This document shows positions 417 to 62,663 of a stretch of DNA of 64,000 nucleotides, one piece after another. The stretch comes from an uncultured delta proteobacterium. Its GTDB lineage: Bacteria; Desulfobacterota; Desulfobaccia; Desulfobaccales; 0-14-0-80-60-11. How positions within the stretch are numbered: the stretch's first letter is position 1; each line of letters begins with the position of its first letter. Made by a program: the position numbers and the translations under genes. Under the pieces are notes generated by a model. The model was not told the DNA's origin, ran no database searches, and saw only the letters and a list, made by a program, of their open reading frames with translations. The stretch is taken from assembly GCA_963797235.1 (NCBI GenBank), contig CAWCOX010000006.1:191668-255667 (forward strand), in the 5' to 3' direction.

Positions 417-1202
417 TTATATTAGACCGGGGACGGGGGACCGGGGACCGAAGTTGCCCTCCTGTTCACCGTCCCTCCTTCTATGCTTCCGGGTTATCGG
501 ACCGAAGAACGAAGTTTGTTCTCCCGTCTCCCGTCCCCCGTCTCCCGTCCTGTTAAGCCCATGCACCACCCCGTGGCAGCGGCAGGCGGTAGCGATCAGG
601 AGCTTGCCGGCCAGGCCGGTCAGTTCCCGGCCCAGAGCCAGCAATTCCCCGGGGGGATAGCCCCCCACCCCGGGGGCCAGCTGCCGGCTGGGGATGACCC
701 GGGTGGCCCAGCCGGGCAGGTTCACGGCCGCCAGTTCGGCGGACAGGGGCGCCTCCCGGGACTCGCCGCTCACCGGACAGACTGAGTCCGGCTCGGGACA
801 ATCATCCGGGCAGAGATGGGCGGCCCGGCTCAGATAGAGCTGCCCCTCGGGGCCTCGGAACCCGACCTTCGCCAAATGTTCCAGTTCTCCAGGGACCGCC
901 GCGGTCTCCCAGCCGTTCAAGGGGCCGGCCAGGAGCCAGGCAGAGGCCACGTGTACCGGCACCATGGGTATTAACCAATCCCAGGGCGAATTATCCGCCA
1001 GGTTGGCGGCCAGGAAGGCAATGGCCTCCGCCGCCACCCACTCAACCTCAGGGATCGCCAGAGCCCGGGCCGCGGCCAGGGCCTCCGGCCGCTGTTCCAC
1101 CACCAGAAATGAGGCCGCCGCCTCTTGCCGGGCCAGACGCGCCAGGGCCAGGCGCCCGAATTTACCCGCCCCCAGGATGAGGTATCTGGCCATCAGGCTC
1201 AA
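417..1202 (-). CDS. NAD(P)-binding Rossmann-fold protein with Cys-rich C-terminal half
   Basis: ILGAGKFG dinucleotide-binding motif at the N-terminus. Cys clusters [13 protein letters not shown] and ACRCHG. The stop lies 2 nt upstream of the activator ATG. The last ~45 codons run through heptamer arrays, so the true C-terminus is uncertain. Confidence 0.55.
429..449. repeat. tandem heptamer array (GGGGACS)x3
   Basis: GGGGACG GGGGACC GGGGACC. Inverted relative to 522-549. Confidence 0.8.
522..549. repeat. tandem heptamer array (YCCCGTC)x4
   Basis: TCCCGTC TCCCGTC CCCCGTC TCCCGTC. Its reverse complement belongs to the same unit family as 429-449. Confidence 0.85.
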
Positions 1203-2044
1203 TCCTGACGCGGAAAGACCCCCACCACGGTGGGCAGCCAGTAAACCTTCTGGTCAAAGATACTCCCGAGGGAGTTCTCCCACGACGGAGGGGAAAAAAA
1301 TTCCAGGTCCTTGGTCTTGATCAACAACTGCGCTTCGGCGCCGCCGTCCAGGTTCAGGGCGGAGTCGATATTGAACTTGCTGTTCTTCAGGAATTGCGCC
1401 AACTCCTTCAGGGTGAAAAAACGGTTGGAGGTATTGAAGACCAGGATGTTGCCCACCCGGTCGGTGGCGATTACCGTGCGGTTGGACCTTTTGTCACTGT
1501 CCCGCACCCGGATGTTGCCCTTGTAGTCCAGCAGCAGTGGAAAGGATTGCACCCCCTGGGTCCAGGGCAGGTTCTGGGGATTGACGGGGGTGGCCTGGAG
1601 GTCCAGGATGGTGGCCCGGGGCAGGTCCGGGGAGATGCCCTTGGGCTCGGCCACAAACATGCCGCGCATCTGCCGGTTGTTGGCCGGGCCGATGGCCTGG
1701 CCGTCAGCCATGATCAGACCCACCGGTTGATTGTTGGGTCCATAAAAGCTGGCATTAAAGACGATGGGGGCCTTCAGTTGCTGCTGCCATTGGGTGATGC
1801 TCTGGGGGGCCTGGTGAAAGACCCGGAAGGCATTGGTGGCCGGATCGATCTTGACCACCGCCAGGCTGGCCACGACCTCGGTGACCTCGCCTTCCCGAAG
1901 CACGTCCACCCGGGCGAAACTGAGACCCCGGCCCAGCGTTTGCCATTGGGGCGCAGTGTGGCTCAAGCCGGCGGCCCCCGCGGTTAAGGGGGCCAGGAGG
2001 CAAACCCAGCAAATGAGGATGATGCTATAAAGCCAGGCGGGCAC
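1199..2044 (-). CDS. secreted phosphodiester glycosidase family protein (DUF2233/NAGPA-like)
   Basis: N-terminal signal peptide (LLAPLTAGAAG). C-terminal ALNLDGGAEAQL motif. ATGA start/stop overlap with the downstream gene. Confidence 0.7.
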   Translation of the reverse strand: MPAWLYSIILICWVCLLAPLTAGAAGLSHTAPQWQTLGRGLSFARVDVLREGEVTEVVASLAVVKIDPATNAFRVFHQAPQSITQWQQQLKAPIVFNASFYGPNNQPVGLIMADGQAIGPANNRQMRGMFVAEPKGISPDLPRATILDLQATPVNPQNLPWTQGVQSFPLLLDYKGNIRVRDSDKRSNRTVIATDRVGNILVFNTSNRFFTLKELAQFLKNSKFNIDSALNLDGGAEAQLLIKTKDLEFFSPPSWENSLGSIFDQKVYWLPTVVGVFPRQD

Positions 2045-2112
2045 CGCCTCTCCTTGCAGACTACGAAAATATGGGATATTTTACCATGGCAGGGATGATT
2101 CGTCCACAAAGT

Positions 2113-2147
2113 TCAGTGATTAGTGGCCAGTAGTCAGTGGTCAGTAA
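2113..2147. repeat. tandem heptamer array x5
   Basis: TCAGTGA TTAGTGG CCAGTAG TCAGTGG TCAGTAA. Confidence 0.85.
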
Positions 2148-2211
2148 ATTCTCAGCCGGGTAGACTTCCGGTAATGTTGGAAAATCCGGATGGGCCTGGC
2201 TGTTTAACTAA

Positions 2212-2232
2212 AAACTCGGAACTCGAAACTTA
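2212..2232. repeat. tandem heptamer array x3 abutting the tatD start
   Basis: AAACTCG GAACTCG AAACTTA. The last A is the A of ATG 2232. Confidence 0.6.
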
Positions 2233-3044
2233 TGTCTATCCGTCTGGCCGATTCCCACGCCCACCTGGACCTGGAGGAGCTGCTGGCCGATCAGGCCGCC
2301 GTGGTGAACCGGGCCCGGGAGGCCGGGGTGGCCTTGATCGTCAACGTCGCCACCGGCCTGGGGGACGCCCGCCAGGTGGTCGCCACGGCCGGGAGCTACC
2401 CCGGGATCCGGGCCGCGGTGGGGGTCCATCCCCATGGGGCGCAGACCATAACTGAGCAGGACCTGGAGACCCTGGCCGCCCTGGCGGCCCATCCCCGCGT
2501 GGCGGCCATCGGCGAGATCGGCCTCGATTTTTACCGCCTGCGTTCGCCGGCCGAGACCCAGGAGCACTGGTTCCGCCGCCAACTGGAGCTGGCTGCCGGT
2601 CTGAAAAAGCCGGTGATCATCCACACCCGGGAGGCCACGGCCGCGACCTTAAAGATTCTCCGGGAATATCGCGGCCGCCTCCAAGGCGGGATCATGCACT
2701 GTTTTGCCGGGAGTCTGGCAGAAGCCCATGATTTTTTGGACCTGGGCCTGCACCTCTCCTTTTCCGGCACCCTCACCTACCCCAAGGCCGGGCCGTTGCG
2801 GGAGGTGGCCAAAGAGGCGCCCCTGGACCGCCTGCTGGTGGAGACCGACTGCCCCTATCTGCCGCCGCAACCCTGGCGGGGGAAGCGCAACGAGCCGGCT
2901 TACGTGGTCGCCACGGCCCGGCAACTGGCCGAGGTCCGGGGCCTCAGCCTGGAAGAGGTGGCCCGGGCCACCTGGGAGAATACCCTGCGGGTCTTCGGGA
3001 TAGAGGAAGAAGAGGTTTTAGTGGCACAGGCCTCCGGCCTGTGA
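2232..3044 (+). CDS. tatD: TatD family metal-dependent hydrolase/DNase
   Basis: N-terminal DSHAHLD metal-binding motif, IGEIGLDF and a 270-aa length. The last codons and the stop lie inside a REP hairpin. Confidence 0.9.
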   Translation: MSIRLADSHAHLDLEELLADQAAVVNRAREAGVALIVNVATGLGDARQVVATAGSYPGIRAAVGVHPHGAQTITEQDLETLAALAAHPRVAAIGEIGLDFYRLRSPAETQEHWFRRQLELAAGLKKPVIIHTREATAATLKILREYRGRLQGGIMHCFAGSLAEAHDFLDLGLHLSFSGTLTYPKAGPLREVAKEAPLDRLLVETDCPYLPPQPWRGKRNEPAYVVATARQLAEVRGLSLEEVARATWENTLRVFGIEEEEVLVAQASGL

Positions 3045-3080
3045 AGGGCACCGGCGCGTAGGGTGCACACCGCGCACCCC
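3019..3080. repeat. REP-like hairpins (family R2 then R3)
   Basis: TAGTGGCACAGGCCTCCGGCCTGTGA, then GTAGGGTGCACACCGCGCACCCC. Confidence 0.8.
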
Positions 3081-3156
3081 TTATTAAGGGTACACGGATA
3101 CCTATCCACTGCTTTTTCTTGGGGATGAAAACCAATAAAGGTGCTCGCAAATATCA

Positions 3157-3838
3157 ATGAGCCAAATCGCCCAAAATTTAGAGGAAGTGCGTCGCCGCAT
3201 GGCCGCCGCGGCCCGGCGGGCCGGCCGGGACCCGGCTGGGGTGCGCCTGGTGGCGGTGAGCAAGACGGTGCCGGTGGAGCTGATCCGCCAGGCCGTGGCC
3301 GCGGGCCAGCGCCTCTTCGGCGAAAATTATTTGCAGGAGGCCCGGGGCAAGATCGAGGCCCTGGGGGAGGCGGCGAGCTGGCATTTTATCGGCCATCTGC
3401 AAAGCAACAAGGCCAAGGCTGCGGTGGGGTTGTTCGAGCTGATCCACGGGGTGGACCGCCTGAAGCTGGCCGAGGCGCTGAATTCTGCCGCGGCCTCCAA
3501 AGGAACCTTACAAAAAATCCTGCATGCAGGTAAACCTGGCGGGCGAGGCCTCGAAATCCGGGACCAGCCTGGAGGCAGCCGCCGAGTTGTGGCGTGAAAT
3601 CAGCCAGTTGCCGCACCTGCGGCTGGTGGGCCTGATGACCATGCCGCCCTTGCTCTCGCCCGAGGCGGTGCGCCCTTATTTCCGGGCCCTGCGGGAGCTG
3701 CGGGAGCGGCTGCAAGACCTGGGCGGGACCCCCTTGCCGGAGTTGTCCATGGGCATGTCCGGCGACTTTGAGGTGGCCATCGAGGCAGGCGCCACCCTGG
3801 TGCGGGTGGGCACCGCCATCTTCGGCAGCCGGCTTTGA
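3157..3838 (+). pseudogene. yggS: YggS-family pyridoxal-phosphate homeostasis protein, apparent frameshift
   Basis: ORFs 3157-3597 and 3524-3838 together give a full YggS (VAVSKT...HFIGHLQSNK then MQVNLAGEASKSG...MGMSGDF). The frames switch near the A6 run at 3512-3517. Confidence 0.8.
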
Positions 3839-3866
3839 CAGTGAGCAGTGAGCAGTGAGCGGTAAG
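3839..3866. repeat. tandem heptamer array (CAGTGAG)x3 plus a degenerate unit
   Basis: CAGTGAG CAGTGAG CAGTGAG CGGTAAG. It starts directly after the yggS stop. Confidence 0.9.
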
Positions 3867-3999
3867 GACCCTTCTGCGTCTTTTCCATAATCCGAACTTT
3901 TCCTCTCTTTCATTTTTTCCCGCTTTAGATATGCTATTATTATCTAAGAGATTAGAAGGACTACGAAAATATGGAGGACAGGCGCAAGCGCCTCCTGCT

Positions 4000-4027
4000 C
4001 CGGTCATCGGTCTCCGGTCTCCGGTCC
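4000..4027. repeat. tandem heptamer array (YCGGTCN)x4
   Basis: CCGGTCA TCGGTCT CCGGTCT CCGGTCC. It ends 13 nt before ATG 4041. Confidence 0.85.
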
Positions 4028-4040
4028 AAAAACGCAAACC

Positions 4041-5048: not shown

Positions 5049-5055
5049 TAAAATC

Positions 5056-8431: not shown

Positions 8432-8468
8432 GTGAGCAGTGAGCGGTGAGCGGTGAGCAGTGAGCAGT
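8431..8468. repeat. tandem heptamer array (RGTGAGC)x5
   Basis: GGTGAGC AGTGAGC GGTGAGC GGTGAGC AGTGAGC AGTAA. It starts at the last base of the thiD stop. Confidence 0.9.
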
Positions 8469-8571
8469 AAAAGCAAAAGAATGAAGCGCATTCAAAATCG
8501 TCAGAATGACCATTCTCACTAAGAGCAGGTTTTAAAATGTCTTGTAGGTTGAAATATCTGATGGTTTTTCT

Positions 8572-8599
8572 GCTCACTGCTTACTGCTCACTGCTTACC
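8572..8599. repeat. tandem heptamer array (GCTYACY)x4, inverted partner of 8431-8468
   Basis: GCTCACT GCTTACT GCTCACT GCTTACC. Confidence 0.9.
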
Positions 8600-8990
8600 T
8601 CTCCATCATGATCACCTTATACAGGGCCAGGCCCACCAGGAGGTGGCCCACCAGGATGGTGATATCAGAAAAGGTAGTTTGCAGCAGCCAGCCGAAGAAA
8701 TTCACGTCGGGCATTACCTTGACCTGCCCGGCCAGGGTGGCGCTGAGGGAGAAGTCGGCCATCATGATGATGCCCAGGTAGGCCAGGAAGCTGTTGAGGA
8801 TGACGGCCAGGATGGCAGTGTACCGAAAGAGGAACAACGGGCACACCAGCAACACGGCGATCCAGGAGAAGAGGTTGGGCCAGATATCGCTGATCAACGG
8901 GCTCGGCGGGTGAATCCGCAGATGCAGCAGGGCGCCGCTCAACGCCAGGGCCAGCAGGGCCACCCACAGGAGATAACGGATGTTTTTCAT
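8595..8990 (-). CDS. hypothetical integral membrane protein (about 4 TM)
   Basis: 131-aa hydrophobic ORF with normal codon bias. No recognisable motif. Confidence 0.5.
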   Translation of the reverse strand: MKNIRYLLWVALLALALSGALLHLRIHPPSPLISDIWPNLFSWIAVLLVCPLFLFRYTAILAVILNSFLAYLGIIMMADFSLSATLAGQVKVMPDVNFFGWLLQTTFSDITILVGHLLVGLALYKVIMMER

Positions 8991-13850: not shown

Positions 13851-16205
13851 ATGGCAGAGCAATCCTTGAGCGCCCTGGAGTTTCCGGGGCTCATCCGGGT
13901 CGTGCAGCAGTACGCCGTCGCGCCCCTGGGTCGGGATTATCTCAGCACCCTGGCGCCCCTCACCGATCTAAGCCTGATTCAGGCAAAATTTCAGCAAATT
14001 AAGGAATGGCAGGAACTGGAGAACCGGGAGGGCGCCTCGCCCCTGGACGATTTCTCCGACCTGGCGCCATGGCTCACCAAGGTGACGGTGCGGGGCAGCC
14101 TCCTGCCGGCCGAGGCCTTCAACGAGATCTTGCAGGTGCTGCGCCTGGCCGGCCACCTGAAGACTTATCTCAAGTCGAACGAATCCCTGACGCCGCAGTT
14201 ATCGGCCCTGAGCGGCGGCCTCAAGGACCTCTCCCGCCTCCAGGAAGCCATCCAGCAGTGCATCAGCCCGCACCATTTCATCCTGGACCAGGCGAGCCCG
14301 GGGCTGGCCGGGGTGCGCCGGGAACTGACCGAGACCCGGGAGCGGGTCAACCGCCAGATCAAGCAGGATTTTTTCCGGCCGGAATACCAGAACGCCCTGC
14401 AAAACCCCATCATCTCCCAGCGCCACGGGCGCTATGTCATCCCCATCAAGGCCGACCACCGGGGGGCGATCCCCGGCATCATCCACGATCAGTCCCAGAC
14501 CAAGGCCACCCTGTTCCTGGAGCCTCTGGCCATCGTGGAGCACAACAACGCCCTCAACCTGCTGCATAATCGGGAAAAGCGGGAAGAGGAACTGGTGCTG
14601 CGGCGCCTCACGGACCTGGTGCGCGATGCGCTCGAGGATATTCGCCAGACCCTGGCCACCCTGGCCGAGGCCGACGCCCTGCAGGCCAAGGTGCTCTTTG
14701 CCCGGGATTTCAAGGCCATAGAGCCCCTCTGGCGGAGCCGCGGCGGCCTGGATTTCAAGCAGGCCCGCCATCCCCTGCTGATTCAGCGCCACCGGGAGGA
14801 CCCCGGGGCGCCGGAAGTGGTGCCCATCGACCTGACGCTCACCCCGGAAAACCGCTGGCTGATCATCTCCGGGGCCAACGCCGGCGGCAAGACCGTGGCC
14901 CTGAAGACCCTGGGCCTGCTCACCCTCATGGCGCAGAGCGGCATCCCCATTCCGGTGGCCGAAGGCAGCGAGTTCTGCCCCTTCGACCGCGTCTTCGCCG
15001 ACATCGGCGACCCCCAGGATTTGCACCAGAGCCTGAGCACCTTTTCGGCCCACTTGAAAAAGGCCCTGGAAGTGCTTAATAGCCTGCCGGGGAGGGATCT
15101 CATCCTGCTGGATGAGCTGGGTACCGCCACCGATCCTACCGAGGGGGGCGCGCTGGCGTTAGCTCTGCTGCAAGTCTTCTATCAGAGGGGTGCTTACGGG
15201 GCGGCGACGACCCATATTCCCCTGTTGAAGGGGTTCGCCCAACGCACCGAAGGCTTCGAGAACGTGGCGGTGGTCTTCAATGAGGAGACCCGGCGGCCCA
15301 CCTATGGCCTGGCCTACGGGGTGGTGGGGGCCTCCAACGCCCTGAAGATCGCCCGGGAGTTGGGCTTGAGCGCCGAGATTCTGGCCCAGGCCGAGCGCTA
15401 TCTCGACCAGGACGAACTGCGGGCCTACCGGCTCTTGGGCGAAGTCGAGGCGGCCCAGCAGGAGGTGGCCCGGCGCGAGGCGGAGCTGGCGGCCCACACC
15501 CGGGAACTGGAGGCCAGGAACCGGGAGTTGGAGGCGCAGCAACGGGAACTGGAGACGGAGCGGCAGCGGCTGGTAACTGAAGTGAAGCGCCATGCCCTGG
15601 ACAGCATCAAAGAGGCGGAGGGGCAATTTAAGGAGATCGTCAAGCGGCTGCAAAGCGGCGGCGAGTCCTGGGGCAGGCTGCGCCAGGAGTTCTCCCGGCG
15701 CCAGGCCGACCTGCTCCAGGAACTGACCCCCGCCCCGAGCCTGACGCCGCCTCCGAGGCCGGTCTATACTCCCGGCCAGAAGGTCTTTTTGCCGGCGTTG
15801 GGGCTGACCGGCGAGATTCTTGCGCAAGATAGTAAGGATGGACGCTTGCAGGTACAGGTGCGCCAGGTGAAGATCCGCGTGCTGCCTGAAGAAGTGGCCC
15901 CGGTCGGGGAGAAGGGCCGGCCCAAAAAGGCCGCGGCGGCGCCGGCTTTGGTCTGCCTGCCGCCCCGGGAATTGGTGCAAAATCTGAACATCATCGGCCT
16001 CCGGGTGGACGAGGCCCTGCCCCTGGTGGACCGGCTCCTCGACCAGGCGGTGCTGAACGGCGCCGAACACGTGGACATCATCCACGGCGTGGGCACCGGC
16101 CGCCTCAAAAAGGCGGTCTGGGAACACCTGAAGCGCCACGGCGCGGTGAAGGAACTCCACGCCGACGCCAACCCCGGGGTGACCGTGGTGGATTTAAAGG
16201 ATTAG
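13851..16205 (+). CDS. mutS2: endonuclease MutS2
   Basis: Walker A GANAGGKT, DELGTATDP and a C-terminal Smr domain (DIIHGVGTGRLK). Confidence 0.9.
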   Translation: MAEQSLSALEFPGLIRVVQQYAVAPLGRDYLSTLAPLTDLSLIQAKFQQIKEWQELENREGASPLDDFSDLAPWLTKVTVRGSLLPAEAFNEILQVLRLAGHLKTYLKSNESLTPQLSALSGGLKDLSRLQEAIQQCISPHHFILDQASPGLAGVRRELTETRERVNRQIKQDFFRPEYQNALQNPIISQRHGRYVIPIKADHRGAIPGIIHDQSQTKATLFLEPLAIVEHNNALNLLHNREKREEELVLRRLTDLVRDALEDIRQTLATLAEADALQAKVLFARDFKAIEPLWRSRGGLDFKQARHPLLIQRHREDPGAPEVVPIDLTLTPENRWLIISGANAGGKTVALKTLGLLTLMAQSGIPIPVAEGSEFCPFDRVFADIGDPQDLHQSLSTFSAHLKKALEVLNSLPGRDLILLDELGTATDPTEGGALALALLQVFYQRGAYGAATTHIPLLKGFAQRTEGFENVAVVFNEETRRPTYGLAYGVVGASNALKIARELGLSAEILAQAERYLDQDELRAYRLLGEVEAAQQEVARREAELAAHTRELEARNRELEAQQRELETERQRLVTEVKRHALDSIKEAEGQFKEIVKRLQSGGESWGRLRQEFSRRQADLLQELTPAPSLTPPPRPVYTPGQKVFLPALGLTGEILAQDSKDGRLQVQVRQVKIRVLPEEVAPVGEKGRPKKAAAAPALVCLPPRELVQNLNIIGLRVDEALPLVDRLLDQAVLNGAEHVDIIHGVGTGRLKKAVWEHLKRHGAVKELHADANPGVTVVDLKD

Positions 16206-16235
16206 AGGGGAAAAGGGAAGTAAGAAGGAAAAGAG
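16206..16235. repeat. purine-tract short repeat (GGGGAAAA-like units)
   Basis: GAGGGGAAAA GGGAAGTAA GAAGGAAAA GAG, directly after the mutS2 stop. Confidence 0.6.
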
Positions 16236-16255
16236 CACAGGCTGGAAGCCTGCGC
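16235..16255. repeat. REP-like hairpin, family R2
   Basis: GCACAGGCTGGAAGCCTGCGC. Confidence 0.7.
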
Positions 16256-16288
16256 TACCAAAAGCCGACAGAGGAATAAGTTAACCGA

Positions 16289-16325
16289 AACTGACAACTG
16301 ACCACTGACAACTAGGCAACTGACC
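16289..16325. repeat. tandem heptamer array x5 abutting the dnaG ATG
   Basis: AACTGAC AACTGAC CACTGAC AACTAGG CAACTGACC, then ATG 16326. Confidence 0.85.
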
Positions 16326-18089
16326 ATGGCGTTTATCCCGGAAGACAAGCTCCTGGAGATCAAGGACGCGGCCCGCATCGAAGAGGTGGTGGGGCAGTAC
16401 GTCCAATTGGTCCAAAAGGGCAAGAATCTTTTGGGACTCTGCCCCTTCCACGCCGACACCAGCCCTTCTTTCACGGTATCCCCGGAGAAGGGCATTTTTT
16501 ATTGTTTCGGCTGCGGCGCCGGCGGCAACGTCATCTCCTTTCTGATGCAGCACCAGCGCCTGAGCTTCCCGGAGGCGGCCCAGGAGCTGGCCCGGCGCTA
16601 CGGCATCCCGCTCTCCTTCCAGGAACTGGGGCCGGAGGGCTCGCAGCAGACCCGCAAGCGCACCCTGGCCTATGAGATCAACCAGGCGGCGGCCAGTTTT
16701 TACGAGGCCACTTTGAGCAGCGCCGCGGGCAAGCCCGGCCGGGACTACCTGGCCAGGCGCGGCCTGACGCCGGAGGTCATCAAGGCCTTTCACCTGGGCT
16801 ATGCCGTGGAGGAATGGGACGCCCTGCGCCGCCATCTGCAGGCCCGCGGCCTCTCTTTAGAGGCGGCCCGGGACGCCGGCCTGCTGATGCCCCGGACCAG
16901 CGGCGGCTTCTACGACCGTTTCCGGGACCGCATCATCTTCCCCATCTTCGACCGGCAAAGCCGGGTGATCGCCTTCGGCGGCCGGATTATCGGCGTTGGT
17001 GAGCCCAAGTACCTCAACTCCCCGGAGTCCCAGCTCTATTCCAAGGGCCGCAACCTCTACGGCCAGCCCCAGGCCGCCGACGCCCTGCGCCTCACCAAAG
17101 TGGCCCTGGTGGTGGAGGGCTATCTCGACCTCATCTCTTTGCAGACCCAGGGCATCGCCAACGTCCTGGCGACGCTGGGCACGGCGCTCACCCGGGAGCA
17201 GGTGCGCCTGCTCAAAAGCCTGGCCGATAAAGTGGTCCTGGTCTACGACGGCGACGCCGCCGGCCTCAAGGCCATGCAGCGGGCCTTTCCGCTCTTTGCC
17301 CAGGAGAGTCTGCCGGTCAGGGCCCTGGCCCTGCCGGCCGGGCAGGACCCGGACGACTACGCCCGCAGCCAGGGGGTGGAGATCTTTAAGAACGCCTGGG
17401 ACTCGGCCCAGCCCTGGTTCACCTTCCTGCTGGAAGGGCTGGTTGCCACCCATGGTCTGGAGGTAGAAGGCCGGGTGCGCATCCTGGAAGAGCTGCGGCC
17501 TTATTTCCAGGCCATCACCGAACCGGTGGAGCAGGATTTATGGCGCAAGGCCGCGGCCCAACGCCTGGGCGTGGACGAAGGCGTCCTGCGCCAGAGCCTG
17601 GCCTCCTGCGCCCCCATCGCCGCCAGCCGGATCAGGCGCACCGCCGGGGTGACCGTCAGTATGGAAAAGGCCCTGCTGCGCTGGGTCTTGTGTCACCCCC
17701 AGGCAATGGAACTGGAGGAATTGGAACACTGGGCCCTGGAGTTCGAAACCGGGGATTTAAAGGAACTCCTGGCCCTCATTATCGAGAATTGCCGGCAACA
17801 CGGCAGACTGGATCACGGCTTGCTGGTGCAGCAGGTGGAGAGGGAGAGCTTGCGCCAGCAAATCTGCGCCTTAACCCTCACAGAGGAGGACACGAGCGGA
17901 ACCGCAACAGATCTCCAGGCCGAAGACTTGCGTCGAATTCTAAAGGTTCGTCAGCTTAAGAAGGCCCGGGTTCAACTGAAAGAAAGAATGCATCATATTG
18001 GCACTACGCAAGTCAAGGAAGACCTGACAGACCTGCAAGTCCAATGGCAGGAGATCGACCGCCAACTTAAAGAACTTTCGGCTCATTAG
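16326..18089 (+). CDS. dnaG: DNA primase
   Basis: Zinc ribbon [30 protein letters not shown] and Toprim EGYLD. Confidence 0.95.
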
Positions 18090-19833: not shown

Positions 19834-19843
19834 GGGCAGAGAC

Positions 19844-19871
19844 GGGAGACCGAGGACGGGAGGCGGGAGCA
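19844..19871. repeat. tandem heptamer array (GGGAGRC-like)x4
   Basis: GGGAGAC CGAGGAC GGGAGGC GGGAGCA, 10 nt after the rpoD stop. Confidence 0.75.
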
Positions 19872-19955
19872 AGCCCCGGTCTGCCGTCTTAAGTTGATTT
19901 CGCCATGATTGCCATCGCCCTATTGAAGAATTGCAGAGGAGAGTTATAATAAATC

Positions 19956-20082: not shown

Positions 20083-20158
20083 GGGCCCATAGCTCAGCGG
20101 TCAGAGCAACCGGCTCATAACCGGACGGTCCCTGGTTCAAATCCGGGTGGGCCCACCA
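20083..20158 (+). tRNA. tRNA with CAT anticodon (elongator Met or lysidine-modified Ile2)
   Basis: Acceptor stem GGGCCCA/TGGGCCC, D arm AGCTCAGCGGTCAGAGC, anticodon loop CTCATAA, T arm CCTGGTTCAAATCCGGG and an encoded CCA. Confidence 0.9.
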
Positions 20159-22802: not shown

Positions 22803-23170
22803 CGCGGAGCAGGCCAGATGATCGCCGGATGGGCGTCATGCCGCCGGAGGAAAGTCCGAGCTCCACAGGGCAGGGTGCTGGGTAATCCCCAGCGGGGGCG
22901 ACCCCAGGGAAAGTGCCACAGAGACCAGACCGCCGTGGTACGTCCACGGTAAGGGTGAAAAGGTGAGGTAAGAGCTCACCAGCGGCGGGGGCGACCCCGT
23001 CGGCTAGGAAAACCCCACCCGGAGCAAGACCAAATAGGGGAGCGCTTGAGGGTGGCCCGCCTGAAGCTCCCGGGTAGGTTGCTGGAGGCCCCGGGCAACC
23101 GGGGTCCTAGAGGAATGATCATCACCGGGGCAACCCGGGACAGAACTCGGCTTACGGCCTGCTCCGCGTT
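22803..23170 (+). ncRNA. rnpB: RNase P RNA, bacterial type A
   Basis: GGAGGAAAGTCCGAGCTCCACAGGGCAGGGTGCTGGGTAATCCCCAG..AGTGCCACAGAGA... and the 3' ACAGAACTCGGCTTAC (P4 pairing CCGAG/CTCGG). Terminal P1 pairing GGAGCAGGCC/GGCCTGCTCC. Confidence 0.9.
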
Positions 23171-23179
23171 TTCTTTGAG

Positions 23180-23216
23180 ACCACCGGCCACTTCAGGTGG
23201 CGGGTGGGTTTTTTTT
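23180..23216 (+). terminator. rho-independent terminator of rnpB
   Basis: Hairpin CCACCGGCCAC-TTCA-GGTGGCGGGTGG followed by T8. Confidence 0.8.
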
Positions 23217-23273
23217 AAAATAAATATTTTTCCACCAACAGAATCACATACATGCAACTTGTGGAGATGCAGC

Positions 23274-24164
23274 GTGCAGCTCAAAGGTGACACTCAAGCG
23301 CTATCCCAATTTCTCGATGATGGGATAACACGTGGTGATGCCTTGGACCTATTGCCACGCCTTCCCCAAGGCAGCATCGACCTTTTCTTCACGAGTCCCC
23401 CGTATGCCGATGCGCGAGCCTATAGTCGGATACACCCAGACCATTATGTTGAATGGTTCCTCCCGTTTGCCAAAGCGATGTTTGATGTTACGTGTGCAAG
23501 TGGTAGCCTCATCCTTAATATCAAGAATCGCGTAGCAAAACAGGGTCAACTAAAGGGTCAGAGGCACCCATACGTATATGAGTTGGTTCTTGCCATCCAA
23601 CGGCTGGGTTGGCGTTGGATTGAGACATACATATGGGCGAAACCCAATGCAGTTCCAGGTAGGTTTGGTCCAAGGACTAAAGATAGTTTTGAGTATGTTT
23701 ATCATTTTGCCCGTGGCGTCAGACCATATTTTGATCTGGATGCAGTTAGAGTTCCATATAAGGCAGACTGCGCAGAGATCGCCAGGCGAAAATTAGACAG
23801 ACTTGGCAGGCGAAATACCGAGGCCGGCTTTGGCCGTGATCGAACGAAGACCTATTTACTAGGTGGAGCGGACCCAGGAAACGTGGTGTCTGTTGCACAG
23901 ACGTACAACCAGTATCGAGGTGTAGCACACACAGCAGCAATGCCGGAGGGACTAGCCGAGTTCTTTATTAAAATCGCCAGCCCTATGGGCGGAATAGTAA
24001 TAGACCCGTTTGCAGGCGGGGGGACTACAATTGTTATAGCTCGTCGTCTTGGACGTAAGGCGGCGGGATTTGAAATTCACGAGCAATTCGTTGACGAGTC
24101 CCGTCGACGTATCGCCGAAAATTCTGCTAATGATATTCCCGGATATCTATTCAAGGTCGGATAA
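23274..24164 (+). CDS. beta-class DNA amino-methyltransferase (N4-cytosine or N6-adenine; SPPY favours m4C)
   Basis: Motif IV FTSPPY precedes motif I DPFAGGGTT (beta permutation). GTG 23274 lies 8 nt after GGAG. The track ORF 5' extension (23046-23273) overlaps rnpB and its terminator and is discounted. Confidence 0.85.
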   Translation: MQLKGDTQALSQFLDDGITRGDALDLLPRLPQGSIDLFFTSPPYADARAYSRIHPDHYVEWFLPFAKAMFDVTCASGSLILNIKNRVAKQGQLKGQRHPYVYELVLAIQRLGWRWIETYIWAKPNAVPGRFGPRTKDSFEYVYHFARGVRPYFDLDAVRVPYKADCAEIARRKLDRLGRRNTEAGFGRDRTKTYLLGGADPGNVVSVAQTYNQYRGVAHTAAMPEGLAEFFIKIASPMGGIVIDPFAGGGTTIVIARRLGRKAAGFEIHEQFVDESRRRIAENSANDIPGYLFKVG

Positions 24165-24169
24165 AATCA

Positions 24170-25276
24170 GTGTCGAATATCCAAGACACAATCAAAAAGA
24201 TTGCCGAAGCGCACAGTTGGGATCAGCGAATCGCTCAGATTCGATTAATTCCTATGAATCATGGGACAAACGAGCATACAAGCATTTACGCTGAAATTGC
24301 GCGATTGCTGTATGTGCCGCACCTTGCCCCTGATTTCGCGTACATACATGAAGACCATTTTTATGGACAAGAATATTTCGAGCAGGTATACGCCGATGCT
24401 TATGTGGCAACGAAAGGATTCACTAGAGTTGTGGAAGACGAGCTATTTTCGGTTCTCGAGAATAATCCCAGAACACTGCTGGTATTTCGTACCATCACGG
24501 GCCTCAGAAAAGCAGAATTCGCACACGCAACCATCATGGCTGGGGAGCCAATTGGCCTAAGCCCCTTGAGTTCGAATAAGGTGGACTCAATGGAGCGAGA
24601 CGGGACGCCAGCCACACATGAACAAGCCAGAGTCGCGGCCAAGACAATTTCCCAAATCATTGATGGTTCTCTTTTTGGTGTTCCACCCGGCGACCTTGTC
24701 AGCAAGCAAGCAAAACCGGACACCGAAAATGGTTGGCCAAGTGTACGCCGCTTTGCTTCCGCTGGTATTCCTTTCTCATTGTTTTTGCACCAACGTCACT
24801 ATGGGGGCTCGTTCCGGCAGATATTGGATGCCACATCAAAAAAACGCGGCGATCTGATTGAGGATGCAGTAGACGCGTTATTCAGACAGAATGGTATCCC
24901 ATACATTCGCACAGGCAGTCACAACCAGGGTGAAATCGCTAATCGGTTTGAGGTCAGGGTTACGCCGGCACCAGACTTTGTGGTTTTTGATCATTCAGAA
25001 ACACTTCGAGCGATCCTGGAATGCAAGACAATAAATGACGGAGGCACGGCTCGCGACAAGGCACCTCGCTTTACGAAACTGCGGGGAGAGTCGAATCGAC
25101 TGGGTGGAATCCCGCTGATCGCTATTTTAGGTGGCATCGGTTGGGCCCGAGTCAACGATGCCTTGGGACCCGTGGTTCGAGACACGGATGGTCGAGTTTT
25201 TACTTTATCGACCCTTTCGACAATGCTCGAAGTGGCACCCTTCCCATCACTGATTGGGCTTGAGCCGACCACATAA
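24170..25276 (+). CDS. putative type II restriction endonuclease (PD-(D/E)XK candidate)
   Basis: Starts 5 nt after the methyltransferase stop. C-terminal APDFVVFD-x10-LECK fits PD...ExK. The N-terminal ~250 aa have no motif I recognise. Same low-G+C composition as the methyltransferase. Confidence 0.55.
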   Translation: MSNIQDTIKKIAEAHSWDQRIAQIRLIPMNHGTNEHTSIYAEIARLLYVPHLAPDFAYIHEDHFYGQEYFEQVYADAYVATKGFTRVVEDELFSVLENNPRTLLVFRTITGLRKAEFAHATIMAGEPIGLSPLSSNKVDSMERDGTPATHEQARVAAKTISQIIDGSLFGVPPGDLVSKQAKPDTENGWPSVRRFASAGIPFSLFLHQRHYGGSFRQILDATSKKRGDLIEDAVDALFRQNGIPYIRTGSHNQGEIANRFEVRVTPAPDFVVFDHSETLRAILECKTINDGGTARDKAPRFTKLRGESNRLGGIPLIAILGGIGWARVNDALGPVVRDTDGRVFTLSTLSTMLEVAPFPSLIGLEPTT

Positions 25277-26292: not shown

Positions 26293-26320
26293 ACTGACTA
26301 CTGACTACTGGCTACTGATC
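26293..26320. repeat. tandem heptamer array (ACTGRYY)x4 abutting the formyltransferase ATG
   Basis: ACTGACT ACTGACT ACTGGCT ACTGATC, then ATG 26321. Confidence 0.9.
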
Positions 26321-28574: not shown

Positions 28575-29499
28575 ATGAGCGGCAAACTGGCCATCAAAGT
28601 AGACGTAGACACTTTGGAGGGTTACTGTAAGGGGGTGCCGGCCTTGTTGCGGGTTTTGGCCGAGCAGGCGGTCCAGGGCCAGCTTCTTCCTGGCCCTGGG
28701 GCCGGATAACTCCGGCCGCGCTATCTGGCGCGTCTTTCGCCAGCCGGGCTTCTTGCAAAAAATGTGGCGCACCCGGGCGCCGGCGATCTATGGCTTCAAG
28801 ACCATGTGTTACGGCACTTTGCTGCCCGCGCCCCTGATCGGGGCCGCGGCCCCGGAAATCCCCGGCCTGATTGCCGCGGCCGGCCACGAAGTGGGGCTGC
28901 ACGGCTACGACCACGTGCGCTGGCACGACCAGCTTTTCCGGCTGCCCCTCCGGGAGATCTCCCGGGAGATCGGGGCGGCCCAGGAGACGCTGGCCTCATT
29001 AACGGGTCGCCGGGCCGACTCCTTTGCAGCCCCGGGCTGGCAATGCAGCGAGGAGAGCCGCCAGGTGCAGGCAGCCCAGCATTTTCTTTATGCCAGCGAC
29101 ACCCGGGGCTTCACCCCCTATTTCCCCCGGTTCGGGAAGACCGTCTCGAAGGTATTGGAGATCCCCACCACCCTGCCCACTCTGGATGAGGTGTTGGGCC
29201 TGGACGGCTGCCGGCCCGGAGATTTCAGCGATCTGGTCCTGGCTCGCCTGAACCCGGAGCGGCCCCAGGTGCTCACCGTCCACGCCGAACTGGAGGGCGG
29301 GCCGTACCTGGATGACTTTGGCCGTTTATTGCAGCGCGGCCGCCGGCAGGGGGTGGAATTCTTCCGCCTGGAGGATTGGGCCCGGGAACTGTTGCAGGCG
29401 CCGGGTAAGATCCAGGTGGCGCCGGTCGCTTCCCGGCGCCTGCCGGGACGGGCCGGCACGGTTTCCTGCCAGGGTGCTCTGGAGGCCCCGTTATCATGA
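28575..29499 (+). pseudogene. arnD: 4-deoxy-4-formamido-L-arabinose-phosphoundecaprenol deformylase (ArnD-like polysaccharide deacetylase), apparent frameshift
   Basis: MSGKLAIKVDVDTLEGYCKGVPALL in frame 1. SFFLALGPDNSGRAIWRVFRQPGFLQKMW...HGYDHVRWHD in frame 2. The slip is at the G3 run 28676-28678. Confidence 0.75.
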
Positions 29500-31534: not shown

Positions 31535-31562
31535 GCTGAAAGCTGAAAGCTGACCGCTGAAA
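31535..31562. repeat. tandem heptamer array (GCTGAMM)x4
   Basis: GCTGAAA GCTGAAA GCTGACC GCTGAAA. Confidence 0.9.
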
Positions 31563-31586
31563 GCGATTTCTTAACCGGAGGGAAGC

Positions 31587-32588: not shown

Positions 32589-33705
32589 ATGGCCGACCGC
32601 TGGATTCCCTTAAAGCAACTTCTGGAAGACGGCCTGGCCCGAGGCGTCTACACCGCGGCCGTGGCGTGCGTGGGCTGGCGAGGGGAACTGCGGTGGCAGG
32701 CCGCCGTGGGCCGGGTTTCTCGGGACCCCGCGGCCTTACCCACGACGCTTGACACCAGCTTCGATCTGGCTTCGCTGACCAAACCCCTGGCCACCGCCCT
32801 GGCCCTGATGGTTTTGACGGAGGCCGGGAAACTCACGCCCGACGCCACCCTGGGGGAATTGCTGCCCGTCGCCTGGCTGCCGCCGGACAAGCGCTCCCTG
32901 ACCCTGGCCCAGCTTTTGGCCCACCGGGCCGGGCTGCCGGCCTGGGAGCCGTTTTACCGGGAAGTCCTGCCAGCCCCCCCCGAGGCCAGGGTGAGCCTCC
33001 TGCCGCGCCTGGCCGCGGCCACACCCCTGGCCCAGCCGCCGGATACCGCCACCCTCTACAGCGACCTGGGCTTCATGCTGCTGCAGGCGGTGGTGGAGGC
33101 CGTCTCGGGCCTGGGCCTGGATCGTTTTTGCCGGGAACAAATCTACCAGCCGCTGGGATTGAGACTCTGGGTTTCACCCCAGTTAAGCCAGGCCCGGCGG
33201 AAATACCTTGAGCTATGCCTGCACCGAGCCGGGGCTCATTCCGGGGCGCCACGTCTGCGGCGAGGTGCACGATGAAAACGCCTGGGCCGCCGGGGGCGTG
33301 GCCGGGCACGCCGGGCTCTTCGGCCGGGGCTCGGAAGTTTTCGCCTTGGTGGCGGCCCTGTACCGCGCTTTTCACGGGGAAGCCGGATTGCCCTGCTCTC
33401 CGGCAACGGTGCGCCGTTTTTTGACCCCGGTGGCCCCGGGAGCCCGGGCCTTGGGGTTCGACGTCCCCAGCCCTGCGGCCGCCCAGTGCTCGGCGGGGCG
33501 CTACTTCTCGCCCCGGAGTGTCGGCCACCTGGGCTTCACCGGCACCTCTTTTTGGCTGGACCTGGAACTGGGGCAGATGATAGTCTTACTCACCAACCGG
33601 GTGCACCTGGGCCGGGACGACAAGACCAGAATCCAGGCCTTCCGGCCGCGCTTTCATGAGGCGGCCTCGAGGGCCCTGGGGTTTGACCAAGGGTTTCGGA
33701 ATTAG
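32589..33705 (+). pseudogene. serine hydrolase (class C beta-lactamase/esterase family), apparent frameshift
   Basis: SLTKP (SxxK) and YSDLGF in frame 1. LSYACTEPGLIPGRHVCGEVHDENAW...GHAGLFG...GFTGTSFW in frame 2. The slip is at the A3 run 33201-33203. Confidence 0.75.
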
Positions 33706-33820: not shown

Positions 33821-33856
33821 TTTGCGTCTTTCTTTGCGACTTTGCGTCTTTGCGTG
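33821..33856. repeat. tandem octamer array (TTTGCGWS)x4
   Basis: TTTGCGTC (TTTC) TTTGCGAC TTTGCGTC TTTGCGTG, followed by AGGTA. Confidence 0.85.
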
Positions 33857-36176: not shown

Positions 36177-36280
36177 TGAAAATCTCCCCTCCCCCCGTTT
36201 TGCAAAGGGAGGGGTTAAAGTCCCCCTTTGAAAAAGGGGGATTTAGGGGGATTTGAAGTTTTCGCGCTAAAGTCTGCGGC
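36177..36280. repeat. ~100-bp composite palindromic element, family R4 (copy A)
   Basis: GAAAATCTCCCCTCCCCCCGTTTTGCAAAGGGAGGGG..TCCCCCTTTGAAAAAGGGGGATTTAGGGGGATTTGAAGTTTTCGCGCTAAAGTCTGCGGC. Confidence 0.9.
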
Positions 36281-37430: not shown

Positions 37431-37535
37431 GAAAATCCCCCCTGCCCCCCTTTGTCAAAGGGGGGGTCCAAAAAGTCCCCCTTTGAAAAAGGGGGATTTA
37501 GGGGGATTTGAAGTTTTCACGCTAACGTCTGCGGC
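37431..37535. repeat. ~100-bp composite palindromic element, family R4 (copy B, same orientation as A)
   Basis: GAAAATCCCCCCTGCCCCCCTTTGTCAAAGGGGGGG..TCCCCCTTTGAAAAAGGGGGATTTAGGGGGATTTGAAGTTTTCACGCTAACGTCTGCGGC. Confidence 0.9.
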
Positions 37536-38509: not shown

Positions 38510-38555
38510 CCCCGTTTTCCCCCTTCCCCTTTTCCCCTTTTCGCCTCCGCCTTTT
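38510..38555. repeat. short-repeat tract (CCCCTTTT-like units)
   Basis: CCCCGTTTT CCCCCTT CCCCTTTT CCCCTTTT CGCCTCCGCCTTTT. It abuts the stop of the COG1900 gene. Confidence 0.75.
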
Positions 38556-50776: not shown

Positions 50777-50811
50777 AACCGAAAACCGCAGACAAAGAAC
50801 TGAAAACTGCC
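50777..50811. repeat. tandem heptamer array x5
   Basis: AACCGAA AACCGCA GACAAAG AACTGAA AACTGCC, in the bamA-skp spacer. Confidence 0.7.
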
Positions 50812-50868
50812 ATTCTTCGTCCCGGCCTCGCTCCCGGAGCTTTACCCGAAGGCCTGCCTCCGGCTTTC

Positions 50869-54307: not shown

Positions 54308-54342
54308 AGTTTCGAGTTTCGAGTTTTGACTTTTCAGTTTGG
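54308..54342. repeat. tandem heptamer array x5
   Basis: AGTTTCG AGTTTCG AGTTTTG ACTTTTC AGTTTGG, in the lolC-lolD spacer. Confidence 0.85.
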
Positions 54343-55643: not shown

Positions 55644-57139
<1,496 letters not shown>

Positions 57140-57234: not shown

Positions 57235-57269
57235 GGACCGGGGACGGGAGACGGAGGACCGGGGAGCAG
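57235..57269. repeat. tandem heptamer array x5
   Basis: GGACCGG GGACGGG AGACGGA GGACCGG GGAGCAG, upstream of lysS. Confidence 0.75.
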
Positions 57270-57496
57270 AGCGAAGTTTGGTGATCCGGGCCTCCGCGCC
57301 CGCCGCCGGCCTCAATCTTTAGACTTAGAGGGCTGCCGCTTCGTTAAAATCATAAAATCGACGGGTCGGGGCTTATTGGACGGAAGCAGGCATTGGTGGC
57401 AGGGGCTTCCAGTCTGTGCCTGGACGACCGGTGGGCGCTGCTGTAACTGCGGCAAAAAAACCGGCGGATTAGGCTGAGGAAAATATTGCGTTATGC

Positions 57497-57698: not shown

Positions 57699-57708
57699 GA
57701 GGTGCATT

Positions 57709-58035: not shown

Positions 58036-58167
58036 ATGGAAAAATTATCCTTTCCTAGTTTTTTCGGATATTTGTCTTTACCCCCGGCGGGTCATTTTAT
58101 GATAGAATTTCTGGGTGACTAGATAGTTGTGGCTATTAATTTTTTCTGGTAAAATCCGCTCGCTTAG

Positions 58168-58605: not shown

Positions 58606-58630
58606 AGCTCACCTTACCTAAACTCCCACC

Positions 58631-59606
<976 letters not shown>

Positions 59607-59617
<11 letters not shown>

Positions 59618-62057: not shown

Positions 62058-62445
62058 GGCCGAACTGAGCCTCACCCTGCTGGGCGACCGGGCCATGGCC
62101 CGCCTCAACCGGGAGACCTTCGGCCGCCGGGGTCCCACCAACGTCATCTCCTTCCCTATGGATGGAGAACAGGCGCCCTCGCCGGTTCATTTACAGCCGA
62201 GGGCGGCTGTTCCACATCCCTCGCCCCTCTTGGGCGAAGTGGCCATCTCCATCGAAACCACCCGCCGCCAGGCCAAAGAATTCGGCTGGCCCTGGCAGGA
62301 ACTCTTCGACTTTTTCCTCATTCACGGTATATTACATCTGATGGGCTACGACCACGGCGCCCCCGGGGAAGAAACGGCCATGACCGCCAAAACCTGGGAG
62401 CTGATGAAACTGCTGCATCCCAAAATAGTAGTCAGTGGCCAGTAG
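61957..62445 (+). CDS. ybeY: rRNA maturation endoribonuclease YbeY (contains an in-frame repeat insertion)
   Basis: GPTNVISFP and HGILHLMGYDH. About 16 extra residues (QAPSPVHLQPRAAVPHP) are encoded by a REP-like element. Confidence 0.9.
   Translation: MKIWISNRQRKTAINPERVRKRAGKILSALGWSEAELSLTLLGDRAMARLNRETFGRRGPTNVISFPMDGEQAPSPVHLQPRAAVPHPSPLLGEVAISIETTRRQAKEFGWPWQELFDFFLIHGILHLMGYDHGAPGEETAMTAKTWELMKLLHPKIVVSGQ
62171..62217. repeat. degenerate family R1 element embedded in frame in ybeY
   Basis: AGGCGCCCTCGCCGGTTCATTTACAGCCGAGGGCGGCTGTTCCACAT aligns with 6952-6999. Confidence 0.7.
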
Positions 62446-62459
62446 TCAGTTGCCAGTAA
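62425..62459. repeat. tandem heptamer array x5 containing the ybeY stop codon
   Basis: ATAGTAG TCAGTGG CCAGTAG TCAGTTG CCAGTAA. It shares AGTGGCCAGTAGTCAGT with 2113-2147. Confidence 0.85.
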
Positions 62460-62521
62460 AAGCTTTCTTAAACTGTGAGGTTGCATTTGAAAATGCAGCC
62501 GATAGCTTTACCGCGAAAAAA

Positions 62522-62606
62522 CAAAATCCCCCTGCCCCCCTTTTTCAAAGGGGGACTTAAACCCCCCTTTGAAAAAGGGGGGCAGGGGGGATTTGAAATT
62601 TGCTTG
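62522..62606. repeat. composite palindromic element, family R4 (copy C)
   Basis: CAAAATCCCCCTGCCCCCCTTTTTCAAAGGGGGACTTAAACCCCCCTTTGAAAAAGGGGGGCAGGGGGGATTTGAAATTTGC. Confidence 0.85.
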
Positions 62607-62635
62607 ACTTATTAGTTCGCCAGCCGAAGATCAAA

Positions 62636-62663
62636 GCTGACCACTGGCTACTGACTACTGAAA
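62636..62663. repeat. tandem heptamer array x4, inverted relative to 62425-62459
   Basis: GCTGACC ACTGGCT ACTGACT ACTGAAA, followed by RBS GGAGA for pdxJ. Confidence 0.85.

Follow-up and report, generated by a model that had tools for sequence, protein, structure and literature searches.

Heptamers repeated head to tail in cyanobacterial DNA, the short tandemly repeated repetitive (STRR) sequences, were reportedly described by Mazel et al. in 1990. Here we analysed a 64-kb window, that is, the whole stretch of DNA under study (contig CAWCOX010000006.1), from an uncultured member of the order Desulfobaccales (Thermodesulfobacteriota, 62% G+C), and found that the heptamer arrays between its genes form a real system extending over the genome; one of them, in the leader of the primase gene dnaG, is kept throughout the order. 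The likeness to STRR pointed out in a preliminary description of this DNA holds, as both are tandem heptamers dispersed in non-coding DNA, with units containing CAGT or ACTG. STRR differ in their cyanobacterial hosts, in their canonical units (STRR1-3) and in arrays that can be much longer, and we found no gene-boundary polarity rule reported for them. STRR sequences serve strain fingerprinting (PMC5088731), and in Nostoc the deletion of heptamer repeats upstream of recF and recO alters reporter expression, an effect for which a still unknown binding partner was put forward (bioRxiv 10.1101/2022.06.06.494920). Among long simple-sequence repeats, those with heptanucleotide units are the most frequent in many prokaryotes, with polymerase slippage as the suggested cause, according to Mrazek (2007) as summarised in PMC4679880.

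Closer precedents exist in two other groups. In marine Beggiatoaceae, cyanobacteria and Bacteroidetes, TAACTGA heptamers stand directly upstream of start codons without a Shine-Dalgarno sequence; 147 of 170 sets point to a start codon and 12 to stops, the largest class ends 1 nt upstream, approximately 90% lack a Shine-Dalgarno, and S1, Csp or CsrA-like proteins were proposed as readers (MacGregor 2015, PMC4679880). These repeats share with ours an organisation in 2–6 tandem heptamers, an almost exclusively intergenic location, RNA predicted to be unstructured, the pre-start position and orientation with a Shine-Dalgarno usually lacking, and a minority directed toward stop codons. TAACTGA itself is not used here; CAACTGA, AAACTGA and CTACTGA are nearly identical to it (CAACTGA and CTACTGA being its one- and two-base variants), and AAACCGA, AAACGGA and others likewise differ from it by one or two bases. 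In contrast to the single dominant unit of Beggiatoaceae, many unit families including G-rich ones are found here, a post-stop class and inverted pairs are prominent, and a site kept order-wide with turnover of its unit is demonstrated, as it is not for TAACTGA. The host is likewise unlike the TAACTGA hosts: it is an anaerobe of the Thermodesulfobacteriota, has a G+C content of 62% and, away from the arrays, uses Shine-Dalgarno sequences normally.

Geobacter metallireducens carries 49 elements of four GGACCGG repeats, in addition to sites that consist of three TCTCCGTS(Y) or five MTYCTGA heptamers and are paired across the two strands, as in the proB-proA spacer; many lie inside genes, and the authors read them as sites for IHF/HU or a global regulator, or as small RNAs (Aklujkar 2009, PMC2700814). 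Their units match ours (GACCGGG, TCTCCCG/CTCCGGT and xxACTGA, with 3–5 units per site), and GC-rich heptamers of this type occur in the window at 425–450 (GACCGGG), 520–549 (TCTCCCG), 3998–4026 (CTCCGGT), 19841–19869 and 57240–57272. Opposite-strand pairs at variable distance within a spacer are shared too, as are operon-internal spacers, proB-proA in Geobacter and lolC-lolD and glycosyltransferase-formyltransferase here. Unlike here, neither a link to start codons or Shine-Dalgarno sequences nor comparative conservation was reported for the Geobacter elements. Geobacter, like this organism, is a former deltaproteobacterium, placed in a different phylum in current taxonomy.

Two further likenesses concern mechanism or shape only. 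The enterobacterial repetitive extragenic palindromes and bacterial interspersed mosaic elements (REP/BIME) also form long stems in spacers after stops, including between convergent genes, whereas the stems here are made of tandem heptads whose sequence differs from spacer to spacer. G-poor, A/C-rich direct-repeat leaders such as the omega leader of tobacco mosaic virus (TMV) are said, in work of Gallie and Kado from 1989 and of Tzareva et al. from 1994, to replace the Shine-Dalgarno in E. coli via S1. TMV omega, CA-repeat leaders and ribosome standby sites resemble the arrays in being unstructured, G-poor direct repeats beside an AUG without Shine-Dalgarno, as a mechanistic comparison and not as membership; such omega-type leaders are viral or synthetic, were tested in E. 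coli and have no 7-nt register. Thus, heptamer arrays are known from other bacteria, and what is new is the lineage-wide case in Desulfobaccales. The preliminary description had called such arrays undescribed for this type of genome; our literature search found no paper describing them in the order Desulfobaccales, so the statement stands for the order, and beyond it gives way to the Beggiatoaceae and G. metallireducens precedents (PMC4679880, PMC2700814).

In the window, tandem arrays were identified with Tandem Repeats Finder (score ≥30) and compared with 30 dinucleotide-preserving shuffles, and genes were mapped by a rough codon-usage gene call followed by Pfam correction. Seventeen period-7 arrays were obtained, compared with a mean of 1.4 and a maximum of 4 in the shuffles, an excess over same-composition sequence that the preliminary description had left to be checked. 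Periods 6, 9 and 12 were likewise above the shuffles, but their arrays are coding sequence. Counting two period-8 arrays (33821–33855 and 38511–38546) and weak ones found by eye (16206, ~50800 and 57240), the total is approximately 20, close to the ~23 claimed previously. Together with those of the relatives described below, the arrays are head-to-tail copies of a short unit beyond chance, and hence belong to the long simple-sequence repeats with units of 5–11 nt (Mrazek 2007). Non-coding DNA makes up only 12.5% of the window and holds 14 of the 17 period-7 arrays, at a median distance of 7 nt to the nearest start or stop, compared with 37 nt when positions are drawn at random within those spacers (P<5e-5). 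The preliminary description was therefore right in placing arrays at gene boundaries, and its unit families (ACTGACT, CAGTGAG, GCTGAAA and others) recur in our catalogue; its impression that almost every spacer longer than ~30 nt has an array was overstated, as this applies to 13 of the 45 spacers of at least 30 nt. Pfam also bore out its gene assignments, with arrays after the stops of yggS, thiD, mutS2, rpoD and the COG1900/HcyBio gene, before the starts of tatD, dnaG, the formyltransferase gene and the HGD-D gene, and inside the lolC-lolD and bamA-skp spacers. The arrays are as follows, where forward denotes an array whose sense strand, relative to its gene, is rich in A and C and poor in G, and ORF an open reading frame:

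425–450, minus strand: 3.7 copies of CGGTCCC (sense), C-rich; ends 10 nt before the ATG (414) of the sigma-54-activator-like ORF 1–414, no Shine-Dalgarno between.
520–549, minus strand: 4.3 copies of GACGGGA (sense), G-rich; in the 3′ tail of ORF 417–1202, complementary partner of 425–450, stem z = −3.15.
2122–2150, minus strand: ACTGACC/ACTGACT/ACTGGCC (sense), forward; ~80 nt upstream of the start of gene 1199–2044.
2212–2230, plus strand: 2.7 copies of AAACTCG; abuts the tatD ATG at 2232 (1 nt), no Shine-Dalgarno.
3839–3860, plus strand: 3.1 copies of CAGTGAG; begins right after the yggS stop (3838).
3998–4026, plus strand: 4.1 copies of CTCCGGT; ends 14 nt before the ATG (4041) of the HGD-D family gene.
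8432–8468, plus strand: 5.3 copies of GTGAGCA; begins right after the thiD/thiN stop (8431).
8570–8595, minus strand: AGCAGTG (sense), reverse-complement partner of 8432–8468; right after the stop of ORF 8595–8990, 31-bp stem, z = −8.9.
16206–16220, plus strand: weak purine-rich AGGGGAAAAGGGAAG; right after the mutS2 stop.
16289–16324, plus strand: five copies of AACTGAC, the dnaG leader; ends 1 nt before the ATG at 16326, no Shine-Dalgarno, unstructured.
19841–19869, plus strand: four copies of G-rich GACGGGAG; begins 7 nt after the rpoD stop and is followed by the partly complementary CCCCGGTCTGCCGTCT.
26293–26318, plus strand: 3.7 copies of ACTGACT; fills the 39-nt glycosyltransferase-formyltransferase spacer, ends 2 nt before the ATG at 26321, unstructured.
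31535–31564, plus strand: 4.3 copies of GCTGAAA; ends 22 nt before the ddl ATG, with a GGAGG Shine-Dalgarno after the array.
33821–33855, plus strand: three copies of the octamer TTTGCGTC; ~115 nt after the stop of the beta-lactamase-like gene.
38511–38546, minus strand: period-8 AAAAGGGG (sense); 8 nt after the COG1900/HcyBio gene stop.
50790–50830, minus strand: weak G/T-rich CAGTTTT/CGGTTTT (sense); after the bamA stop, in the bamA-skp spacer.
54308–54326, minus strand: 2.7 copies of AAACTCG (sense); 68 nt upstream of the lolD start, within the lolC-lolD spacer.
57240–57272, no strand assigned: GGACCGG/GGGAGAC-type; in a 533-nt spacer, owner gene uncertain.
62427–62458, plus strand: AGTAGTC/AGTGGCC; overlaps the ybeY stop (62445).
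62637–62661, plus strand: CTGACCA/CTGGCTA/CTGACTA, forward; stops 14 nt short of the pdxJ start and is followed by an AAGGAG Shine-Dalgarno, complementary to 62427–62458, closing stem of ~25 bp, z = −11.8.

An Rfam scan of the window gave no match at the arrays, with only RNase P RNA and tRNA-Met reaching the gathering score. In a terminator scan, no terminator-like site coincided with the arrays at 16206–16324 or 19841–19869, and by inspection no T run follows the stems at 8432–8595 and 62427–62661, as an intrinsic terminator would require.

To follow the arrays beyond the window, species-representative genomes were scanned with the window DnaG, which yielded 54 loci (DnaG identity 60–92%; 856 kb in total), nearly all metagenome-assembled and labelled Desulfobaccales, Desulfobaccia or ‘delta proteobacterium’. 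A 7-periodic array upstream of the dnaG ATG was found in 44 of 48 Desulfobaccales loci over this whole identity range, with position, strand and period kept, whereas among 484 other genes whose spacers measure 70 nt or more, only 24 (5%) matched that periodicity score. Periods 5, 6, 8 and 9 gave no signal at dnaG, and the array was missing in both outgroup loci inspected (L045 and L047). The gap between array end and ATG is 2–39 nt in the relatives (median 9), against 1 nt in the window, and conservation of the N-terminus MAFIPEDK makes the choice of start codon secure. Across 45 loci the array measures 17–68 nt (median 31) and comprises 2–9 units, so that copy number varies between related genomes as slippage would have it. 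In addition, an array-ATG junction scan retrieved three metagenome contigs with 5–6 units at the same dnaG site, none from a near-identical strain, and the DnaG homologue search covered relatives of at least 67% identity.

The unit itself drifts between lineages (AACTGAC, TACTGAC, CACTGGC, AACCGAA, AACGGAA, AACAGAA, AACTCAA/AACTCGA, AACTAAA and AACCAAA), and despite this the units within each dnaG array are uniform. In a common register the heptads follow the consensus AACYGAM, with A-C at positions 2–3 in 45 of 45 arrays and drift at positions 4, 5 and 7; as the phase was picked to maximise A-C, what tells is the presence of such a dinucleotide in each array, with the remaining positions then falling into line. 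Promoter and terminator scans of the sense strand of the mutS2-dnaG spacer found no sigma-70-like promoter or terminator-like site, and none coinciding with the array. Thus, dnaG is probably co-transcribed with mutS2, and its translation must start afresh behind the array. Because the array is kept order-wide and replaces the usual ribosome-binding site, it is probably functional.

Several observations concern the surroundings of this array. In a clade with AAAACCG units (L016, L027, L028, L044, L050, L052, L053 and others), it is flanked on the 5′ side by GCTTTTAA(C) and on the 3′ side by GGCTTTTAA, both of which resemble the dnaG coding start ATGGCTTTTATC. Many database DnaG models (homologues P0001–P0120) are 593–595 aa long, versus 584–587 aa from the MAFIPEDK start, and gene callers probably lengthen the DnaG N-terminus into the stop-free arrays. 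A dispersed palindromic element of ~90 nt, with the core CCCCCTTTGAAAAAGGGGG followed by ATTTAGGGGGATTT, has six core matches in the window versus 0.02 expected; it lies at ~36190–36260, ~37440–37515 and ~62520–62600 and also in L004, L010, L018, L022, L025, L035, L043 and L053, in relatives often 60–250 nt upstream of dnaG, and it matches no Rfam family. REP-like GC-rich hairpins with conserved flanks, such as CACAGGCTGGAAGCCTGTGCCAC, GGCGGGCA...TGCCCGCCCTAC and AACCGCCGAGGGCGGCGGTTCTACAT, occur at 16234–16256, at 63393–63577 and in many other spacers of the window, and also between mutS2 and dnaG in relatives.

The arrays before starts were then examined for their ribosome-binding context. 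In the window, forward arrays end 1 nt before dnaG and tatD, 2 nt before the formyltransferase gene, 10 nt before ORF 1–414 and 14 nt before the HGD-D gene and pdxJ, and of the 50 arrays in the relatives that lie no more than 30 nt from a start, 47 have an A/C-rich sense strand. A GGAG or GAGG at −20 to −4 was present in 7% of array-preceded genes, compared with 72% of closely spaced genes and 31% of other long-spacer genes (Fisher P = 6e-5), the 72% indicating that Shine-Dalgarno use in the lineage is otherwise normal. Likewise, the mean predicted folding energy from −40 to +20 was −6.3 kcal/mol for array-preceded genes versus −14.0 kcal/mol for the others (P = 8e-20), and for the leaders of dnaG and the formyltransferase gene the predicted fold is no more stable than that of shuffled versions.

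A relation was also observed between strand composition and gene end. In the window, sense-strand C exceeds G in 9 of the 10 pre-start arrays, and G exceeds C in 9 of the 10 post-stop ones; in the relatives, no pre-start array has an A+C content under 0.59, and the value for most post-stop arrays is less than 0.5. At either gene end, it is thus usually the A/C-rich strand that reads toward the neighbouring gene. Where arrays of opposite polarity share one spacer, their units are complementary in about 9 of 11 pairs as judged by eye, including 8432/8570, 62427/62637 and 425/520 in the window and 18921/19357 in L004, 6297/6352 in L006, 14460/14583 in L029, 175/256 in L026 and 20149/20323 in L011. 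The paired arrays are predicted to form stems of 25–31 bp, far more stable than those of shuffled sequences (z = −8.9, −11.8 and −3.2 for the window pairs).

Over the relatives' loci as a whole, period-7 arrays occur at roughly 1–4 per 10 kb, with a density of 41 per 100 kb in non-coding versus 4.6 per 100 kb in coding DNA, and period 7 dominates the non-coding arrays, followed by 8 and 10. Outside dnaG, most sites turn over rapidly. Beside 21 other orthologous gene families arrays are sporadic, present in at most ~15% of members. The glycosyltransferase-formyltransferase spacer, with 3.7 copies of ACTGACT in the window, has two copies of CCGAAGG in L004 and nothing in most other relatives, and the GCTGAAA unit of the ddl array recurs in L010 and L046, yet upstream of orthologues of the window gene 28753–29499 and not of ddl. 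The convergent thiD/ORF8595 spacer holds inverted short-tandem pairs quite unlike the window's in L010 (244–394), L011 (1328–1496) and L014 (1568–1713), which read CACCAAG.../...CTTGGTG or G-rich/C-rich; a long hairpin seems to be conserved there while its sequence changes. A conserved post-rpoD array was considered and dropped, as the G-rich array at 19841–19869 is shared with L038 only and missing from most relatives checked, which have the tRNA-Met promoter there. This sigma-70-like promoter (TTGAAG, 16 nt, TATAAT; 19923–19950) precedes tRNA-Met (20083–20158), and most relatives keep it downstream of rpoD; in the window, the G-rich array is an insertion between it and the rpoD stop. Arrays were also seen in L045, an alphaproteobacterial outgroup (618–649, 2944–2968, 3018–3042 and 14012–14038), among them an inverted pair GAGGCAC/CCTCGTG and an AAAACCG array, so the phenomenon reaches beyond Desulfobaccales.

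Based on these results, we tentatively favour, as a real possibility short of a probable one, the reading that the arrays are slippage-born repeats of 7 nt, more rarely 8 nt, which strand-specific selection on RNA would retain at gene boundaries, the forward arrays being candidate Shine-Dalgarno-independent leaders. Selection is evident from the conservation at dnaG, the hugging of gene boundaries and the strand polarity, and slippage as the generator we infer from the period together with the variation in copy number. Replication slippage would create and resize the arrays, and selection at the RNA level would keep those at gene boundaries. Forward arrays, whose sense strand is A/C-rich and G-poor with the heptad consensus AACYGAM and which stand directly before starts, would stand in for the Shine-Dalgarno; they may give the 30S subunit an unstructured place to land or stand by, probably via ribosomal protein S1, and would set the level of Shine-Dalgarno-independent initiation, with the dnaG leader as the conserved example. 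Translation of dnaG from this leader could be strong or deliberately weak, primase being a low-abundance protein. Reverse arrays are G/T-rich or G-rich on the sense strand and lie just after stops; where their spacer holds a complementary forward array as well, the two would pair into the 25–31 bp stem, which could serve as a 3′-end stabiliser, a processing site or a coupling hairpin. More broadly, the post-stop arrays and their stems may be 3′-end or processing hairpins, may show the sole orientation tolerated after a stop, or may be antisense Rho-loading sites.

Several points weigh against this reading. The role of the arrays in translation is one that we infer, and a leader role leaves the equally tight hugging of stop codons unexplained. 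That A-C never varies within the heptad points to a particular sequence being recognised, more than to a mere lack of structure. The contrasts in Shine-Dalgarno content and folding are not phylogenetically independent, because approximately 40 of the 55 array-preceded genes are dnaG orthologues, and the forward arrays of ddl and pdxJ have a normal Shine-Dalgarno downstream of the array. The polarity has an exception in L010, where the CACCAAG-type pair has the A/C-rich arm first, for which reason a universal rule of the G/T-rich arm first in each pair was dropped. Finally, genes were called with a crude model of codon usage, and several genes of the window contain frameshifts.

A sequence-specific reader stays the main rival, although we regard it as unlikely, because A-C is invariant and units resembling AACTGA recur in phyla far apart. 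The arrays would then be multimeric binding sites for a dedicated protein, one heptad per subunit or domain, either an RNA-binding regulator with cold-shock or S1-type OB folds or a nucleoid DNA-binder such as IHF/HU as in Geobacter, with a global regulon. The strict period of 7 and the persistence of A-C at heptad positions 2–3 over ~10 unit types and deep divergence speak for it, and cold-shock domains bind ~6–7 nt per domain. Also in its favour are TAACTGA (PMC4679880) and MTYCTGA (PMC2700814) in distant phyla and the altered reporter output after heptamer-repeat deletion in Nostoc (bioRxiv 10.1101/2022.06.06.494920). However, one genome holds many unrelated unit families (AACTGAC, GGACCGG, AAAGGGG and TTTGCGTC), all of which no single protein could read; outside dnaG the sites are not kept between relatives, whereas a regulon should keep them; no candidate protein was identified, and the motifs of CsrA (GGA) and Hfq (ARN triplets) misfit the units. 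A bolder form, which we consider somewhat less likely still, takes the AACYGAM heptads as a sequence-specific initiation or regulatory signal read in 7-nt register by S1, another OB-fold protein or primase on its own leader, adopted independently or exchanged among Desulfobaccales, Geobacter, Beggiatoaceae, cyanobacteria and Bacteroidetes; this signal would set dnaG expression order-wide, with the reverse arrays and stems as the matching 3′-end or processing half.

It is improbable, in our estimate, that the arrays are functionless by-products of slippage favouring 7-nt units, which survive where harmless while selection filters their orientation only, for example by removing from leaders those G/T-rich arrays that bring in spurious GTG or TTG starts. 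Their fast turnover, with other arrays or none in the glycosyltransferase-formyltransferase and thiD spacers of close relatives, the dnaG copy number of 2 to 9 and the prevalence of heptanucleotides among long prokaryotic repeats (Mrazek 2007, via PMC4679880) all suit such an origin, whereas 44 of 48 genomes, with DnaG as little as 60% identical, keep the dnaG array in site, strand and period against a background of 5%, arrays lie far nearer boundaries than random placement in the same spacers allows, and about 9 of 11 opposite-polarity pairs have complementary units. The polarity follows the spacer and not gene orientation, and this, together with an unstructured, G-poor sequence on the strand reading into the gene, would also fit Rho-loading sites similar to Rho utilization (rut) sites, in which the C>G strand always reads into the adjacent gene; they would end untranslated transcripts running into a gene from either side, by attenuation in 5′ leaders and by suppression of antisense transcription at 3′ ends. 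Unstructured RNA with C>G is a hallmark of rut sites. We judge this account quite improbable, given that arrays of 17–68 nt (median 31) are below the typical rut length of ~60–80 nt, that many units (AAAACGG, AAAACAG, GCTGAAA) are not C-rich and have no YC dinucleotides, and that attenuating the essential dnaG order-wide seems costly. As for assembly or sequencing artefacts, some indel errors are possible since several window genes are frameshifted, but arrays at the dnaG site in ~50 independently assembled genomes and three metagenome contigs come from many projects, assemblers and sequencing platforms, and this worry of the preliminary description can be dismissed as having next to no probability.

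Several narrower ideas were tried and rejected. Arrays of stop codons in all frames suit units with TGA, TAG or TAA (ACTGACT, CAGTGAG and AGTAGTC) but account neither for AAAACCG and AAACTCG nor for G-rich units. A mini-ORF that begins upstream, runs through the array and ends in TAA-ATG is in frame in L009 and has no start codon in L016 and others. Miniature inverted-repeat transposable elements with heptamer terminal inverted repeats were set aside, as the pair interiors share no similarity, as was a sigma-54 promoter in the conserved CTGGCAACTGACC, where the GG-to-GC spacing is off by 2, and CsrA (GGA) or Hfq (ARN) sites, which misfit most units.

Among the other features of the window, three genes are split across frames, yggS (3157–3838), the beta-lactamase-like gene (32589–33705) and a lysyl-tRNA-synthetase-like gene (55712–56945), which indicates assembly indel errors or pseudogenes. 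The RNase P RNA gene (22806–23169) is directly followed, up to 25276, by a lower-GC gene pair encoding an N6/N4 DNA methylase and a weakly matching DpnII-like endonuclease; with this methylase/endonuclease pair, 22806–25276 is probably an acquired restriction-modification island.

Reports of heptamer repeats near bacterial genes go back to 1990 for cyanobacteria, with Geobacter and Beggiatoaceae following later, and whether such repeats are selected had stayed unclear. To this question Desulfobaccales adds comparative evidence of selection, in the form of an array before the essential primase gene that is held order-wide while its unit turns over, together with a defined motif, AACYGAM with invariant A-C, and a strand-polarity rule with opposite composition at starts and stops. 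The interest of the system thus lies in a comparative handle on an old question and not in a new category of element. If it is true that the forward arrays are sites of Shine-Dalgarno-independent initiation, gene finders and ribosome-binding-site models should include them.

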